Assembly: GCF_001677475.2 (NCBI RefSeq)
Contig: NZ_CP015229.1
Length of the DNA stretch: 64,000 bases
Source of the DNA: Escherichia coli
Lineage (GTDB): Bacteria > Pseudomonadota > Gammaproteobacteria > Enterobacterales > Enterobacteriaceae
Direction: 5' to 3' (one strand)
Position 1 is the first letter of the stretch, and the number at the start of each line of letters is the position of its first letter. The notes beneath the pieces are model-generated. The model had not been told where the DNA came from. It saw nothing but the letters and a program-made list of their open reading frames with translations, and did not search any database. A program made the translations under genes and the position numbers. Below, one piece after another: positions 5,523 to 36,074 of this stretch.

Positions 5523-5577
5523 ATGCCTCCGGCACCATGAAGCAGACCACGTTTAAATCTGCTTCACAGGTGCTTTT

Positions 5578-6174
5578 ATGGAAAATCAAAAATTCTCCCC
5601 GGCCTTTGAACATGCGCTGAATTTCATTCTGCGTCCCGATATCGAAGGCGTCTATGCCAATGACCCCACTGACCGTGGCGGTGAAACCAAATACGGCATT
5701 TCTGACCGCCGCGACGGTGTGACTGACGGCAAAACCGATGTCAACGGCGACGGCAAACCGGATACCCGCATCAGGGATTTAACCCGCGAACAGGTTGCTC
5801 AGATTTACTGGCGCGATTACTGGCTGCCTGCCGGATGTGACCAGTGGCCTGATGGCGTGGCGATGTTTGTGTTCGATGCGGCGGTTCAGCATGGCGTTAA
5901 AAAAGCTATCAGGATTTTGCAGGAAGCCGCGGATGTGGATGCTGACGGCATCATCGGCCCCCGTACCCGTAAGGCCGTGAGCCTGTCCACCCCGGACTGG
6001 CTGCTGGCCCGCTGCATTGTCCGTCGTTCCCGCTTTTATGCCGACATCATCAAGTCCAAACCCGCCCAGGGCAAATACCTGAACGGCTGGTTTAACCGCA
6101 TGGAAAAGCTGACCGACGCCTGTCTGGAAATCATCGATACCCCTCCAGGCATCATGTCCGCCACGCGGGGGTGA
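5578..6174 (+). CDS. endolysin, GH108-like N-terminal domain plus peptidoglycan-binding domain
   Basis: 198 aa; motif EGVYANDPTDRGGETKYGIS typical of GH108 muramidases. Confidence 0.8.
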   Translation: MENQKFSPAFEHALNFILRPDIEGVYANDPTDRGGETKYGISDRRDGVTDGKTDVNGDGKPDTRIRDLTREQVAQIYWRDYWLPAGCDQWPDGVAMFVFDAAVQHGVKKAIRILQEAADVDADGIIGPRTRKAVSLSTPDWLLARCIVRRSRFYADIIKSKPAQGKYLNGWFNRMEKLTDACLEIIDTPPGIMSATRG

Positions 6175-30961: not shown

Positions 30962-31147
30962 ATGGATGCTGTTCGTTGTAAAAACTGCAATAAATTGCTG
31001 TTTAAAGGAAGTTTTAAGCATATAGAAATCAAATGCCCTCGTTGTAAACGTTACATTGTCATGTCGAGTGCCCGGGAGCATCCCACGGAGCTGTATTGTG
31101 GGAAAAGAGAAGAAATCACGCATCCTTACAAAACCCTGCGTTATTGA
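30962..31147 (+). CDS. com: Com zinc-finger translational activator of mom
   Basis: 61 aa; [33 protein letters not shown]...THPYKTLRY closely resembles Mu Com. Confidence 0.85.
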
Positions 31148-31793
31148 GTATGAAGGCCGTATTGTCGGCTATGGTTCAAGGGAACTGCGCGTTGAAACCA
31201 TATCCTGCTGGCTGGCCCGCACAATCATTCAGACAAAGCACTATTCCCGCCGTTTTGTGAATAACTCCTGGTTGCATCTGGGGGTATTCAGCGGACGTGA
31301 TCTGGTTGGCGTTCTCCAGTGGGGATACGCCCTTAATCCCAACTCAGGGCGTCGGGTCGTGCTGGAAACGGATAACCGGGGCTATATGGAACTGAACCGC
31401 ATGTGGTTACACGACGACATGCCCCGCAACTCTGAATCACGGGCTATCAGCTACGCACTGAAAACCATCAGGTTACTGTATCCATCAGTGGAGTGGGTTC
31501 AGTCCTTTGCAGACGAACGCTGCGGACGTGCAGGTGTTGTGTATCAGGCATCTAATTTTGATTTTATTGGTAGCCATGAAAGCACGTTCTACGAGCTGGA
31601 CGGCGAGTGGTATCACGAGATAACGATGAACGCGATTAAGCGTGGAGGACAACGAGGCGAGTATTTGCGGGCTAATAAGGAGCGGGCGGTGGTACACAAA
31701 TTTAATCAGTATCGCTACATCAGATTCCTGAACAAGCGCGCAAAAAAGCGACTAAATACTAAGCTATTCAGGATTCAGCCATACCCGAAGTGA
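31098..31793 (+). CDS. mom: Mom DNA adenine modification protein
   Basis: No in-frame ATG near 5' end; GTG 31098 (GGAG 9 nt upstream) gives 231 aa; overlaps com by 50 nt. Confidence 0.8.
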
Positions 31794-31838: not shown

Positions 31839-32244
<406 letters not shown>

Positions 32245-32356
32245 TTGTCATTTGTTACCGGTCAGTCTACACATTTCAGATGCTGCGTTAAAAAACCCAA
32301 GTACTTCAAGTAGCACATCGTCATCAACACCCAGCCCCAAGATACGGTGATAAAAT

Positions 32357-33390
32357 TCAAGCCTTAAGAGGCTTTGTGTATGTTCGTGTAATCCATCCAG
32401 TAATAAACTCGTCCCCTGATTTAACCTGCACGAAAAGCCATTGGCGATCTTTTTTATCTAAAACAGCCACTATAGTATTTTTGCCAATGCATTCAATCAC
32501 CTCACTATTTATAGAAGGACTGACGTGTAATCTTACGTTCTCACCAGTTATAAAACGAAAACCATTGAGATCTTCCCAACTAATTTCTTTGTTTTCTTTA
32601 ATTAATTGTTGTTTTGATATTGGTTTATCCTCAAACAGAGATATAAAATATGATTCTGCCTTGTGTATTCCCAGCAAGGTTTTCTCTTTTCCGTAATCAA
32701 TAAAAGCACCAAACACAACTTGAGAAAATATAACCATTAGTAACCATTGCAGTGGATAAGGAAGCTCTTTAAATGAATCAACAAACTTTGAGCTAGGTTT
32801 ATTTAATCCTTTATTTTGAACATTACTTTTGGTGTGTGATGTTTCAGTAGCACCTTCAGCATAAGCCTGCGCAATAGATGAAATCCCCTGCTCTATTATT
32901 TGATGTAATGAAGCATTTCTTGTTCTAGCATAGTGATCTAGTACTTTCTTTATGTCTTGGCTTACATCTGTTTTATAACTTGCACTTTGTTGTAATTCTT
33001 TAAGTATCGCTTGCATGTTATTTAAACCAGCTTGCTTATTAAGCACCTCAAGCTGTTTTCGTAATGGCATAGCTATTTCGGCCTGTTTCCTTAGCATTTG
33101 AATATATCTATTTGCGTCATGAGGGAAAAGAGCCTGAGTCTGTTTCTGTAAAATCGCGATATGTTCACGATACTTGCTGCCTATTCCAGCCAAGTTCGGC
33201 ATACTAGCCAATTGTTTTCGAAGAGAGTTACTAATTACAGCTTGTCTATTCAATCTTGTCATATTTTGAAAAGAATGTTTTTCTATTCCTAATTGTTTTT
33301 GCAAGATCGCTACGTGATCTTTGTATGATGGAATGAGCACTGACTGTTTATACAGTAACTTCAACTCATTAGAATTAGTAATTTTTGTCA
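32357..33390 (-). CDS. membrane protein with internal repeats and SH3-like C-terminal domain (sim-region)
   Basis: AT-rich; repeats HVAILQKQ / EHIAILQKQ, one TM, C-terminal beta-rich domain; start uncertain. Confidence 0.45.
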
Positions 33391-33465
33391 TATTATTCCA
33401 TTTATATAATAGAATATTACGCAACCAATGTTTTATTGATTGCGTTAATCTTTAACACAGAAAGA

Positions 33466-33942
33466 TCATTTGCCTCGTTTAATACATCCATCCATTTTGG
33501 CTTGTTGATACAACTTACTTAGCCCAGAAAGAGGGAATGTAGCAATTTTTTCATTATCAACATAAGCATCAATCATATTAGCATTTGAATCTGCTGCATC
33601 TTGCCAAAAGGCATACCACCAAGAATCTCCAACCATTGATCCAAGATTGCTAAAAGGATATTGCTCACCATCTATAGTTAATACTATTTTATTCTTGTCA
33701 GCATTATACTCTTTTTTATTATTCGACGAACTTAGCAACAAGCCTAAACTACCTGCACTATCTGGTGAACCATACATGAATCCCATATCACATAAAAAAC
33801 TTATCTTATCACCATTATGATTATGGATTGTATATTCTCTCCCCCCTCTCTCTTCAATTACATTCCATTGTAGAGGATCAATTTTTGCAAATGTTCCTGC
33901 TGAAACTAACGATACAAATAATAAAAACCATCTCATATTCAT
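33466..33942 (-). CDS. secreted protein with signal peptide (sim-region)
   Basis: 158 aa; N-terminus MNMRWFLLFVSLVSAGTFA; AT-rich. Confidence 0.55.
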   Translation of the reverse strand: MNMRWFLLFVSLVSAGTFAKIDPLQWNVIEERGGREYTIHNHNGDKISFLCDMGFMYGSPDSAGSLGLLLSSSNNKKEYNADKNKIVLTIDGEQYPFSNLGSMVGDSWWYAFWQDAADSNANMIDAYVDNEKIATFPLSGLSKLYQQAKMDGCIKRGK

Positions 33943-33964
33943 TCTTTTCGCTTCTTATCTGTAA

Positions 33965-34315
33965 TTATTCTGCAATATCATTTGCCCATTGCACGGCAGC
34001 AAAATGAGTACCCAAACCACTCAGGAAAGCAATTACCCCCAAAACAATACTTGCTGCTGTTGATTCAAACAAAGTACCAATACTATAGCCAATAGCTCCC
34101 CATACTAAGCTAAATACAATCATCAATGGTATTGCCAGAAATTTTATTCTTAAACTAAAAATCAGTCCAAGAAAAGAACCGCCAAAGGCCCACCATGATT
34201 TAGACATTAAACCTATCAGTATTGACAGAATTCCTATTTCAATAAAGAGAATATTAGATTGCTCTTCATTGAATTTCGCATTTGTTACACCTTTACGAAC
34301 ATGTTCAGATGACAT
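33965..34315 (-). CDS. small multi-pass membrane protein (sim-region)
   Basis: 116 aa; AGGAG RBS; 3 hydrophobic segments. Confidence 0.55.
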   Translation of the reverse strand: MSSEHVRKGVTNAKFNEEQSNILFIEIGILSILIGLMSKSWWAFGGSFLGLIFSLRIKFLAIPLMIVFSLVWGAIGYSIGTLFESTAASIVLGVIAFLSGLGTHFAAVQWANDIAE

Positions 34316-34453
34316 GATTAACTATCTCCTGCCACAGATAAAACGCCTTAAAATAACATTTTGTAGCATAAAGTTTCACCATGCAATGGTCAAAATCTTT
34401 GACCCATATCAATTAAACTCATACATTTTAGTTACCAGGGAAATAATTTACAT

Positions 34454-34470
34454 GGTTACAAGTTGCTCTA
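34454..34470. promoter_or_regulatory. C1 repressor operator-like 17-mer upstream of immI
   Basis: GTTGCTCTAATTATTTT versus P1 consensus ATTGCTCTAATAAATTT. Confidence 0.45.
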
Positions 34471-34654
34471 ATTATTTTATTTTTTTAGCTTCATATGCTA
34501 CATTAACTTGCTTGCGTGCTAATGCATTTTCGGTTTATCCTAAACAGGCATCTTAGTAAAATGGATGCCGGGATTGGAACCCCGGATAATGCAAAAGGCG
34601 ACACAGACGCCAAAAGCGTCTTTTTTTGTGTCATGCCATCGCACAGCCATACGT

Positions 34655-34745
34655 AGCACATAGCTCCGAGATCAATGGTAGTGCTGGCTGGGCTGCCGAA
34701 AGGCAGGCCGGTTCCCTTTTGCGCCGGTAGTTCCAACCCAGTCAG
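34655..34745 (+). ncRNA. c4: c4-like antisense regulatory RNA region of immI (boundaries approximate)
   Basis: Segments complementary to GATTGGAACC / CCATTGAG elements present upstream (34571) and at the icd RBS (34754-34770); position between operator and icd. Confidence 0.4.
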
Positions 34746-34812
34746 TGCTACCGCCATTGAGATTGGAACCTCACGCGGTAGCTCCTTAAATTAGCAAAAG
34801 GAGGCTGCCATT

Positions 34813-35034
34813 GTGGCTACTATCCCTACCCCTACTCATCCTGAATTTATCTGGCGCTTTTACTCCTGCCAAAAACACCACTATCACTTCGTTATCGCAG
34901 CAACAGAAGACGAAGCACGCTCTCAATTGCCTGATGGCCCCTGCATTTTTACTGCCCGTTTTTCAACTAACTCGCGCAATTCACTTAGTTACTGGAACCT
35001 CCCCTTCTCTGCCGACGTTCAGGGGGGTTTATGA
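34813..35034 (+). CDS. icd: Icd-like cell-division interference protein
   Basis: 73 aa; GTG start after AAAGGAGG; stop overlaps ant start. Confidence 0.6.
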   Translation: MATIPTPTHPEFIWRFYSCQKHHYHFVIAATEDEARSQLPDGPCIFTARFSTNSRNSLSYWNLPFSADVQGGL

Positions 35035-36074
35035 AAAAACCTCTCGTCACCCGGAATGAAATAGCCGAAGCGATCGCCCTGCATACTGCCTGTATGCCGA
35101 CACGGGAGATCCCCGGCGCAATTGCCAACTATTTCATGATAACCAAGCGTTTTTATACCCGGATAGATAAGGCTGTGATCAACAGGCTACTGATAGCCGA
35201 GATCAGGGATTATTTGATTGAACAAGGACGTCTACGTTACGCAACAGTGGCAGCAGAAATGAGAAAGGAGGCACATAGAATGACCGGTAATAATTTGAAT
35301 GTTGAAAAACCAGCACCTGTTGCTTCAGCTACGCCAGCACCAGCCGTGAATGTCATCCCCAACACCGGAGACACAATCGACAGCCAAACATTGTTGAAGA
35401 TGGTCAATGAGGCACGCAAGTTATGTGGAGAACCATTGGTTAGAAACAATAAATTCATCGAAAAAATACTCGACGAATTAGAAGGTGAGGACGGTTACAC
35501 AAAAAGTGCAACCGTGCCGCCAGGTGGCGGTACGCCTATGGTTGTCATAACCATGACCTACAAACAAGCCCTGCGAGTTGCCGCGCGCGAGTCAAAAGCG
35601 GTCCGCCGTTCGCTGATCGACAAACTGGAAGAATTGCAGCAGGCAAACTCCCCTGCCCCATCGATCCCCCAAACATTACCAGAAGCTCTACGCCTGGCTG
35701 CCGAGTTGGCAGAACAGAAAATGCAGTTGGAACAACAGCTGGTGGCCGCAGCCCCTAAAGTCGATTTTGCCGACCGGGTATCAGTGGCCAATGGAATCCT
35801 GATCGGGAACTTTGCAAAGGTCGTTGGACTTAAGCAAAACGCCCTTTTCTCATGGTTGCGCCAGAGCGGCATTCTCATGGCTTTTGGTGAGCGCAAAAAC
35901 GTACCGCGCCAGCAATACATTAATGCCGGGTATTTCACGGTGAAAGAAGTGGTGCTGGATGATGAAAATGGCTACCAGATACGGCTGACGCCCCAATTAA
36001 CGGGTAAAGGCCAGCAGTGGTTAACTCGCAAGCTACTTGATGCTGGTTTGTTAAAACCAGTAGCAATAGGTTAA
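35031..36074 (+). CDS. ant: antirepressor Ant (KilAC-type C-terminal domain)
   Basis: 347 aa; C-terminal block AAPKVDFADRVSVANGILIGNFAKVVGLKQN; in-frame internal Met for a shorter form. Confidence 0.75.
   Translation: MKKPLVTRNEIAEAIALHTACMPTREIPGAIANYFMITKRFYTRIDKAVINRLLIAEIRDYLIEQGRLRYATVAAEMRKEAHRMTGNNLNVEKPAPVASATPAPAVNVIPNTGDTIDSQTLLKMVNEARKLCGEPLVRNNKFIEKILDELEGEDGYTKSATVPPGGGTPMVVITMTYKQALRVAARESKAVRRSLIDKLEELQQANSPAPSIPQTLPEALRLAAELAEQKMQLEQQLVAAAPKVDFADRVSVANGILIGNFAKVVGLKQNALFSWLRQSGILMAFGERKNVPRQQYINAGYFTVKEVVLDDENGYQIRLTPQLTGKGQQWLTRKLLDAGLLKPVAIG

Follow-up and report, generated by a model that had tools for sequence, protein, structure and literature searches.

Three genes with no detectable similarity to simABC occupy the sim site of a P1-like phage-plasmid of Escherichia coli

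Introduction

Which genes occupy the sim site of P1-like phage-plasmids when the superimmunity genes of P1 are missing from it, and could they serve the same end by other means? In phage P1, the site holds the simA-simB-simC operon; SimC is reportedly a processed periplasmic protein that, upon over-expression, blocks P1 infection after adsorption. Here, we analyze a 64,000-nucleotide stretch of E. coli DNA (RefSeq assembly GCF_001677475.2, contig NZ_CP015229.1), called the window below, which is a P1-like phage-plasmid carrying a block of three minus-strand genes at this site (32357-34315). In the order of transcription, these encode a predicted small inner-membrane protein of 116 amino acids (gene 1), a predicted secreted protein of 158 amino acids (gene 2) and a single-pass membrane protein of 344 amino acids with a candidate C-terminal SH3 domain (gene 3). 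The block is best explained as a horizontally acquired accessory cassette in a hypervariable site; its proteins appear unrelated to Sim, and we tentatively favor a role in protecting the cell envelope against incoming phage.

P1-like phage-plasmids have eight highly variable regions of low GC content, and simABC is among them (PMC9603915); P1 growth does not need the sim genes (PMC10695390). The variability of the site is thus published, and the genes described here are already on record as hypothetical proteins, in hundreds of entries and in PHROGs. What is new is that the block looks unrelated to Sim, that gene 2 falls in the YfjT/YkfB family, that YfjT-type alleles outnumber simC at the site, and that the SH3 family of gene 3 seems specific to phage-plasmids, is modular and has an architecture of repeat turnover.

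Results

A low-GC cassette stands in place of simCBA

The three open reading frames (ORFs) of the block lie at 32357-33424, 33466-33942 and 33965-34315 in the ORF listing. Their block has a guanine-plus-cytosine (GC) content of 34.3%, compared with a window mean of 51.1% (standard deviation 5.7% over equal-length segments) and with 48-49% in the neighboring pmgC remnant, icd and ant1. Just 0.5% of equal-length segments are as low, and the lowest-GC segment of the window falls inside the block. A preliminary description of this DNA had portrayed an AT-rich trio of minus-strand genes whose products show internal repeats, one transmembrane segment and a beta-rich C terminus, a signal-like start, or the hydrophobicity of a small membrane protein; the ORF listing and a GC scan confirm the composition and the gene layout, and every one of the protein features is present. 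Because the ratio of non-synonymous to synonymous substitution rates (dN/dS) against diverged copies is 0.07-0.36, indicating purifying selection on all three genes, and because homologues of their products are conserved down to 26-45% identity, we conclude that the three ORFs are real genes.

The cassette sits exactly where P1 carries sim. Similarity to P1, P7 and other relatives stops at 32255-32264 on the left and restarts at 34840-34843 on the right (blastn). The left-hand P1 match is 96% identical and gap-free over 31920-32256, covering LPsit, a late promoter, and codons 1-95 of pmgC; it ends at 32256 and resumes at 34840, at icd. The intervening segment (32257-34839) replaces simC-simB-simA together with the P1-type c4 leader and comprises the variable cassette and a variant immI leader; in P7, the same interval is filled by upf50.0/upf50.5. 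Synteny and the breakpoints against P1 and P7 show that the block has both the location of the P1 sim operon, between pmgC/LPsit and immI (c4-icd-ant), and its direction, being transcribed away from immI. The position beside immI and at the P1 sim site, as proposed in the preliminary description, is therefore borne out, the former by the C4 antisense RNA gene followed by icd and ant1.

The likeness to Sim is one of position

Do the three proteins descend from SimA, SimB and SimC? All-against-all BLASTP of the three against SimA/B/C and Upf50.0/50.5 gives a best E-value of 0.87. A 27-sequence YfjT-family alignment compared by hhalign reaches a probability of 1.0% against SimC and 0.4% against SimB, confined to signal peptides, and tblastn of the Sim proteins finds no homologue of theirs in any part of the 64-kb window. 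Both sets of genes have a low GC content. They also share the slot, the orientation, a count of three genes and exported or membrane products, and these last traits are what could speak for highly diverged homology. Sizes and architectures, however, are unlike those of SimA/B/C, and a true SimA relative (a longer protein, described below) sits beside these genes as a fourth gene in relatives L002 and L007. We regard homology as very improbable, and the sequence and profile comparisons effectively refute it; as judged by these comparisons, the block is unrelated to Sim and the likeness is positional only. The label "sim-like" given earlier thus holds for position and fails for homology, while the accompanying remark that the products could not be matched to SimABC stands. 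A further difference from P1 is that the superimmunity phenotype belongs to SimC, whereas the cassette is known from its genes alone.

The comparison also bears on the history of sim itself. The 52-residue P1 SimA (L003, 3120-3278) appears to be the 5' remnant of a secreted protein of 172-215 residues that we call long SimA (L002, 3961-4599; L006, 2371-3018; L014, 1709-2227; L023, 2401-2970): the sequences agree in full as far as ...GHVY and differ after it. Several P1-like elements, the isolated Cronobacter phage JK004 among them, carry long SimA with a YfjT-family gene behind it. Because SimA looks like a remnant of long SimA and the long SimA-YfjT order recurs, the simCBA arrangement of P1 may be a secondary replacement.

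Another occupant of the site, the P7 lipoprotein Upf50.5 (L005, 2408-2929), gives a sub-threshold Pfam match to TraT (E-value 7e-5, 23 bits against a cut-off of 31). TraT is the surface-exclusion and serum-resistance lipoprotein of the F plasmid. In RefSeq, Upf50.5 is labeled a DNA methyltransferase, which looks like a mis-annotation.

The three genes assort as separate modules

Relatives carry the cassette genes in differing combinations and singly. The order 116-YfjT-SH3 of the window recurs in L001 and in IMG/VR loci, and is preceded by long SimA in L002 and L007. In L004, the 116-residue and YfjT genes are kept and a DUF4760 gene on the other strand replaces the SH3 gene just past the YfjT stop codon; the swap starts at window position 33472, placing a module junction at the spacer between genes 2 and 3. 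Phage Ro157c2YLVW and Cronobacter phage JK004 have long SimA-YfjT, and L014, L015 and related IMG/VR loci have long SimA followed by diverged YfjT (28% identical) and SH3 (62-78% identical) genes with abutting or overlapping frames. In L016 and L042, which belong to a second, non-P1 type of phage-plasmid, the SH3 gene occurs alone and is divergently transcribed. The three genes are therefore separate modules and not an obligate three-part system.

Only one linkage recurs: in P1-like elements of the E. coli type, a YfjT-family gene always stands directly before the SH3 gene, and the diverged types of the two also travel together. Among PLSDB plasmids, 669 have the P1-like flank; a long or short SimA domain is found in 267, the YfjT family in 181, SimC in 141, the SH3 gene in 63 and the 116-residue gene in 52. 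At the sim site, YfjT-type alleles thus outnumber simC.

Gene 2 encodes a YfjT/YkfB-family protein

Gene 2 (33466-33942, minus strand) encodes a 158-residue secreted protein, predicted to be periplasmic, that matches phrog_3429 and Pfam PF27224, the latter as a tag precomputed on an identical or 99%-identical protein. A word-indexed homologue search returned near-identical hits only, and an exhaustive HMMER profile scan of 1.84 billion representatives found the rest: 31 hits, nearly all of about 150 residues with a signal peptide, among them a cluster named YkfB (E-value 5e-5). One hit, a 571-residue repeat protein, was judged spurious and excluded from the alignment. The homologue of L014 aligns with the gene 2 family at an hhalign probability of 99.9%. 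By these profile comparisons, the 158-residue protein is a member of the YfjT/YkfB family (PF27224). In the family alignment, W109 is invariant, W26, G33 and C51 are present in at least 90% of sequences and a C-terminal Cys in most; the protein itself has two conserved Cys. Its dN/dS is 0.12-0.21.

E. coli K-12 encodes two proteins of this kind, YfjT in CP4-57 and YkfB in CP4-6. They share with the 158-residue protein a length of about 150 residues, a signal peptide, the Cys pair and Trp residues, yet K-12-type YfjT/YkfB are only about 20-25% identical to it. Neighborhoods differ as well: the 158-residue gene occupies the phage-plasmid sim site, whereas the K-12-type genes lie in a GTPase/WYL/YfjS...KlcA/RadC/CbtA island. 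Relatives of the family occur in three settings. Some lie in CP4-57-type islands, with a WYL regulator/YfjS-like gene on one side and DUF932/KlcA/RadC/CbtA genes on the other; some are carried by other P1-like phages, and some by lytic jumbo phages of Serratia and Pectobacterium. No function for yfjT or ykfB is given in the literature searched.

An AlphaFold2 model built with the family alignment (predicted local distance difference test, pLDDT, 88; predicted template modeling score 0.80) has about nine strands and two helices; residues 1-20, which hold a signal-like hydrophobic segment, are of low confidence. The model has no informative structural neighbor, and sequence and profile searches of solved structures found none for the YfjT family. 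We considered a conserved small membrane partner of YfjT and rejected it: a 116-residue gene that precedes the YfjT homologue of Enterobacter/Serratia (L009) is unrelated to gene 1. Within the Mu-like prophage part of the window, a minus-strand tblastn match to the YfjT family (5548-5772; 31% over 85 residues, E-value 0.012 in a search of this one window) is probably due to chance.

Gene 3 joins a variable repeat region to a conserved membrane and SH3 module

From its first possible TTG, the ORF of gene 3 spans 32357-33424 (355 residues); the accepted start is the ATG at 33391 (RefSeq, protein collection), giving a minus-strand gene at 32357-33391 and the 344-residue product (phrog_7086). Residues 1-213 form a helical-repeat region rich in Q, K and L, and are followed by a membrane segment (214-231), a linker of about 50 residues and the C-terminal SH3 domain. 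The repeat region contains a degenerate internal duplication of about 51 residues (SYKDHVAILQKQ / KYREHIAILQKQ) and further h-x-K-Q motifs. Residues 214-231 are the only hydrophobic segment of the 344-residue form in a hydropathy analysis. Because this lone segment lies 213 residues from the N terminus and there is no N-terminal signal peptide, the N terminus would be cytoplasmic and the SH3 domain periplasmic; the charges flanking the segment do not decide the orientation.

Pfam SH3_3 (PF08239) matches the C-terminal 55 or so residues at an E-value of 1e-5 and 26.0 bits, just under the cut-off of 27, while the homologue in L016 scores 32.9 bits; a PF08239 tag is also precomputed on most homologues and on the identical protein, marked weak for the window sequence. 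We take the domain call to be sound for the family and borderline for this member. Bacterial SH3 domains typically bind peptidoglycan. The gene 3 domain resembles the SH3b (SH3_3) modules of peptidoglycan hydrolases and is weakly similar to phrog_1794, a phage amidase SH3 module (E-value 0.008), but in place of a hydrolase domain the protein has a membrane anchor and a long repeat-rich N terminus. No solved structure for the SH3 C terminus was found by sequence and profile searches.

Homologues form 48 clusters, nearly all of them on 90-100 kb contigs, and come from Escherichia, Citrobacter, Salmonella, Pseudocitrobacter and Yersinia; compared with its 63 plasmids, the gene is found in none of the GenBank phage records. 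The SH3-family proteins of L016 (2484-3929) and L042 (3071-4435), of 454-481 residues, are encoded alone and opposite to neighboring VRR-NUC, HNH and SNF2 genes, on the non-P1 phage-plasmid type of about 90-100 kb found in Citrobacter and relatives. The family thus seems specific to phage-plasmids and not to P1.

The two halves of the protein evolve differently. Over the last 135 residues (membrane segment, linker and SH3 domain), family members are 49-96% identical, compared with 13-60% in the N-terminal part, which ranges from about 210 to 350 residues and whose tandem repeats differ by lineage, with periods of 13, 17/34, 19 and 28 residues. The C-terminal module has a dN/dS of 0.13-0.31, the N-terminal part one of 0.36-0.61. 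We considered positive selection on the repeat domain and rejected it, as these values do not exceed 1 and indicate relaxed constraint.

Gene 1 encodes an orphan small membrane protein

Gene 1 (33965-34315, minus strand) encodes a 116-residue small protein with three to four hydrophobic segments by hydropathy and a conserved N terminus of about 20 residues, and it has an AGGAG ribosome-binding site 8 nt upstream. It matches phrog_15014, of unknown function, and no family in Pfam, NCBIfam or PADLOC; it is a predicted inner-membrane protein of an orphan family. Its dN/dS is 0.07. The copies on the 52 PLSDB plasmids are nearly all at least 95% identical, and a 45%-identical copy lies on an Anoxybacillus plasmid; in Salmonella, Vibrio and metagenomes, homologues that are 58-72% identical have unrelated gene neighborhoods.

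In relatives, the gene has a secreted neighbor. A 212-residue long SimA gene lies directly before it in L002/L007, and on metagenome contig L018 (439-1608), a 65%-identical homologue starts 13 nt after the gene of a secreted DUF4431 protein that shows homology to long SimA over its C-terminal 117 residues (E-value 2e-10). The window has no long SimA, and its similarity to L002 ends 46 nt upstream of the 116-residue gene. These arrangements suggest that a secreted protein and a small membrane protein form a conserved pairing, of which the window would have lost the secreted partner. Long SimA also occurs without the 116-residue gene in many elements (L006, L014, JK004).

Expression signals

A consensus scan places a sigma-70-like promoter candidate for the three-gene unit at 34365-34393 on the minus strand (TTGACC, 17 nt, TATGCT), which precedes gene 1 by about 50 nt, and genes 2 and 3 have weaker ribosome-binding sites than gene 1. 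A terminator-like scan identifies an 11-pair hairpin at the module boundary in the 74-nt spacer between genes 2 and 3 (33419-33445, minus strand), and a hairpin that starts within the gene 3 stop codon (32359-32374, minus strand), with a 6-bp stem followed by GAATTTTATC; the region holds 7 terminator-like sites against 1.6 expected. The cassette is probably its own transcription unit, expressed from the resident plasmid-prophage, and would then be active in the lysogen. The C1-operator-like site of the immI leader (34462-34478, plus strand; P1 operator consensus search, three mismatches) is 69 bp past the -35 hexamer of the promoter candidate, and because of this distance, we infer that C1 would not be expected to repress the cassette.

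The immI leader and the Mu-like prophage end

To the left of the cassette, the retained P1 late promoter LPsit (32235-32253, minus strand), located by mapping the alignment to the annotation of P1, drives pmgC and the genes that follow it. To the right, the C1-operator-like site, an isrK-like small RNA (sRNA), the C4 antisense RNA (34671-34758, plus strand; Rfam RF01695, 76.7 bits, E-value 1.5e-14), icd (34813-35034, plus strand) and ant1 (35031-36074, plus strand), the last two located by tblastn, together make up immI. A pattern search finds six C1-operator-like sites in the window, compared with 0.16 expected by chance. The immI leader is unlike those of P1 and P7 over 34362-34839; the isrK-like Hfq-binding sRNA (58.9 bits) lies upstream of the C4 RNA, with leader intervals at 34548-34626 and 34675-34794. 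In relatives, RefSeq annotates a 39-residue "ash family protein" here; the overlap of this call with the gene for the C4 RNA makes it likely that an RNA gene was miscalled as a protein.

On the left flank, pmgC (31919-32203, minus strand) is cut to codons 1-95: tblastn with P1 PmgC gives 96% identity over residues 1-95 only. A Mu-like transposable prophage is inserted within the gene and terminates at the junction 31919/31920, with com at 30962-31147 and mom at 31056-31793; the mom region is 89% identical to Mu and SfMu, and terminal repeats of the Mu-like form AAGCGCGCA...TTATTCAAGATA lie beyond mom. This Mu-like end is also found at unrelated chromosomal sites in other E. coli, while the pmgC/Mu-like junction of the window occurs in none of 5426 complete genomes. 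P1 plaque formation requires pmgC, and because that gene is interrupted, the P1-like element of the window is probably defective as a phage.

Discussion

What might such a cassette do? Our favored, though still tentative, reading is that, expressed from the prophage, it protects the envelope against incoming phage in a manner analogous to that of Sim, through unrelated proteins that act as separate modules. The 116-residue protein would span the inner membrane several times, the YfjT/YkfB-family protein would be soluble in the periplasm, and the gene 3 product would be anchored in the inner membrane, its SH3 domain most likely facing the periplasm and its variable helical-repeat N terminus the cytoplasm. 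Such products would most likely modify or occupy the envelope so that incoming phages or other invaders are blocked after adsorption. They would probably fill the functional slot that Sim has in P1 with different proteins, and as separate modules rather than as one machine.

Several observations are consistent with envelope protection. The cassette is an exact positional replacement of simCBA between LPsit/pmgC and immI, and all characterized or annotated sim-site occupants in relatives (SimA/B/C, P7 Upf50.0/50.5, long SimA, the DUF4760 membrane protein and YfjT-family proteins) are secreted, lipoprotein or membrane proteins. Low GC content, as a sign of foreign origin, candidate expression signals of its own, purifying selection and the linkage of genes 2 and 3 point the same way, and the dispensability of sim for P1 growth fits accessory or exclusion genes. 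The YfjT family is confined to mobile elements, including strictly lytic jumbo phages of Serratia and Pectobacterium, where a secreted protein can serve only the phage. Small membrane, periplasmic or lipoprotein exclusion proteins encoded by resident elements include Imm and Sp of T4, SieA of P22, Llp of T5, Cor of phi80 and TraT of the F plasmid; the cassette resembles these in category only, with no Pfam or PHROGs match to them. The invasion-associated protein B of Bartonella (IalB, PDB 3dtd) is also counted among the known proteins nearest to the cassette.

Other points weigh against this reading. The preliminary description had judged the products suited to envelope-level exclusion; they do look targeted to the envelope, yet they match no exclusion, defense or immunity family in Pfam, PHROGs, NCBIfam or PADLOC. 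PADLOC-DB v2 returns no family for the three proteins at an E-value up to 1; eight further proteins that occupy the locus in relatives likewise give none at an E-value up to 0.1. Searches of Pfam at an E-value up to 1 and of PHROGs up to 0.1 give just SH3_3, chance-level hits and three PHROGs of unknown function, with no Imm, SieB, Cor or colicin immunity family. Across the three proteins and the eight further occupants, the family scans yield nothing functional beyond SH3_3, DUF4760 and DUF5384, and they reveal no homology of the cassette proteins to unrelated housekeeping proteins. Literature searches on simC, yfjT, ykfB and phage-plasmid hotspots returned no functional data on the cassette genes. 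The positional argument is itself weak, as cargo of any kind gathers at a variable site; the region has no more promoter-like sites than expected by chance, and that of the cassette is a consensus match only; and a single-sequence AlphaFold prediction of the gene 3 protein reaches a pLDDT of only 35. Finally, the YfjT family also resides in CP4-57-like integrative islands beside anti-restriction and toxin-antitoxin genes, a context that an establishment function or another role fits equally well.

The cassette could instead be envelope cargo that benefits the host through stress tolerance, colonisation or cell-wall handling, inserted at a site that merely tolerates insertions; it would then play no part against phages or toxins. 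We consider this the foremost of the alternatives, albeit an unlikely one. It would accommodate a site that is a general variable, low-GC cargo region, families without defense annotation, YfjT/YkfB homologues fixed in CP4-57/CP4-6-type islands on many Enterobacterales chromosomes, and the presence of the 116-residue family in ordinary chromosomal neighborhoods as well. However, the three families hardly occur outside mobile elements, the SH3 family was found on phage-plasmids only, and the YfjT homologues of lytic jumbo phages cannot serve long-term host fitness. Somewhat less probable still is that the 116-residue protein, perhaps with the YfjT protein, is an orphan immunity protein that neutralizes an envelope-acting toxin, bacteriocin-like or contact-dependent, whose gene has been lost. 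Immunity proteins to pore-forming colicins are like the 116-residue protein in size and in having three to four membrane segments, and the adjacency of long SimA, or of a protein with its domain, to the 116-residue gene in L002/L007 and on the unrelated contig L018 resembles a secreted and small-membrane pair of which the window keeps the membrane partner only. No colicin or other immunity family is matched at an E-value up to 1, however, nothing marks long SimA as a toxin, and its occurrence in many elements that lack the 116-residue gene (L006, L014, JK004) argues that it is not an unguarded one.

A role in the lytic cycle, for instance in lysis timing or in crossing peptidoglycan, would make the genes phage accessories and not lysogen protection. 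The weak likeness of the SH3 domain to the phage amidase module, the location of the block directly upstream of a late operon with a tail-associated transglycosylase, and the YfjT homologues of lytic phages would fit, but the block lies upstream of LPsit, not behind it, and ends in a terminator-like hairpin. P1, P7 and most relatives moreover lack the block and lyse normally; of about 669 P1-like plasmids, 63 have the SH3 gene. The corresponding genes of P1 are non-essential, and a catalytic domain is missing from all three cassette proteins; we hold this role to be improbable. An even more speculative proposal is that the SH3 protein might be a new device, specific to phage-plasmids, that spans the inner membrane as a wall-anchored sensor or tether: its conserved periplasmic SH3 module would grip peptidoglycan, its diversifying cytoplasmic repeats would recognize a component of an invader or of the plasmid itself, and the co-diverging YfjT-family protein would be its periplasmic partner. 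It would be similar in concept to the Zorya stator, which is wall-anchored and has a long cytoplasmic tail.

Taken as a whole, this is an ordinary accessory cassette to which no family assigns a function: its anatomy is secure, as are its position, family membership, selection and assortment, whereas membrane topology, expression in the lysogen and an exclusion function are inferred. If no phenotype is found, its genes would be ordinary hypothetical cargo. P1-like phage-plasmids are nonetheless frequent in E. coli from patients and animals and disseminate resistance genes, and the cargo of the sim site may determine which other phages, therapeutic ones and P1-based tools among them, gain entry to their hosts. 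The textbook "P1 superimmunity" is a minority allele in PLSDB, with simC on 141 plasmids against 181 for the YfjT family. A phenotype for the cassette, if found, would provide the first function for the YfjT/YkfB family, including two uncharacterized genes of E. coli K-12.

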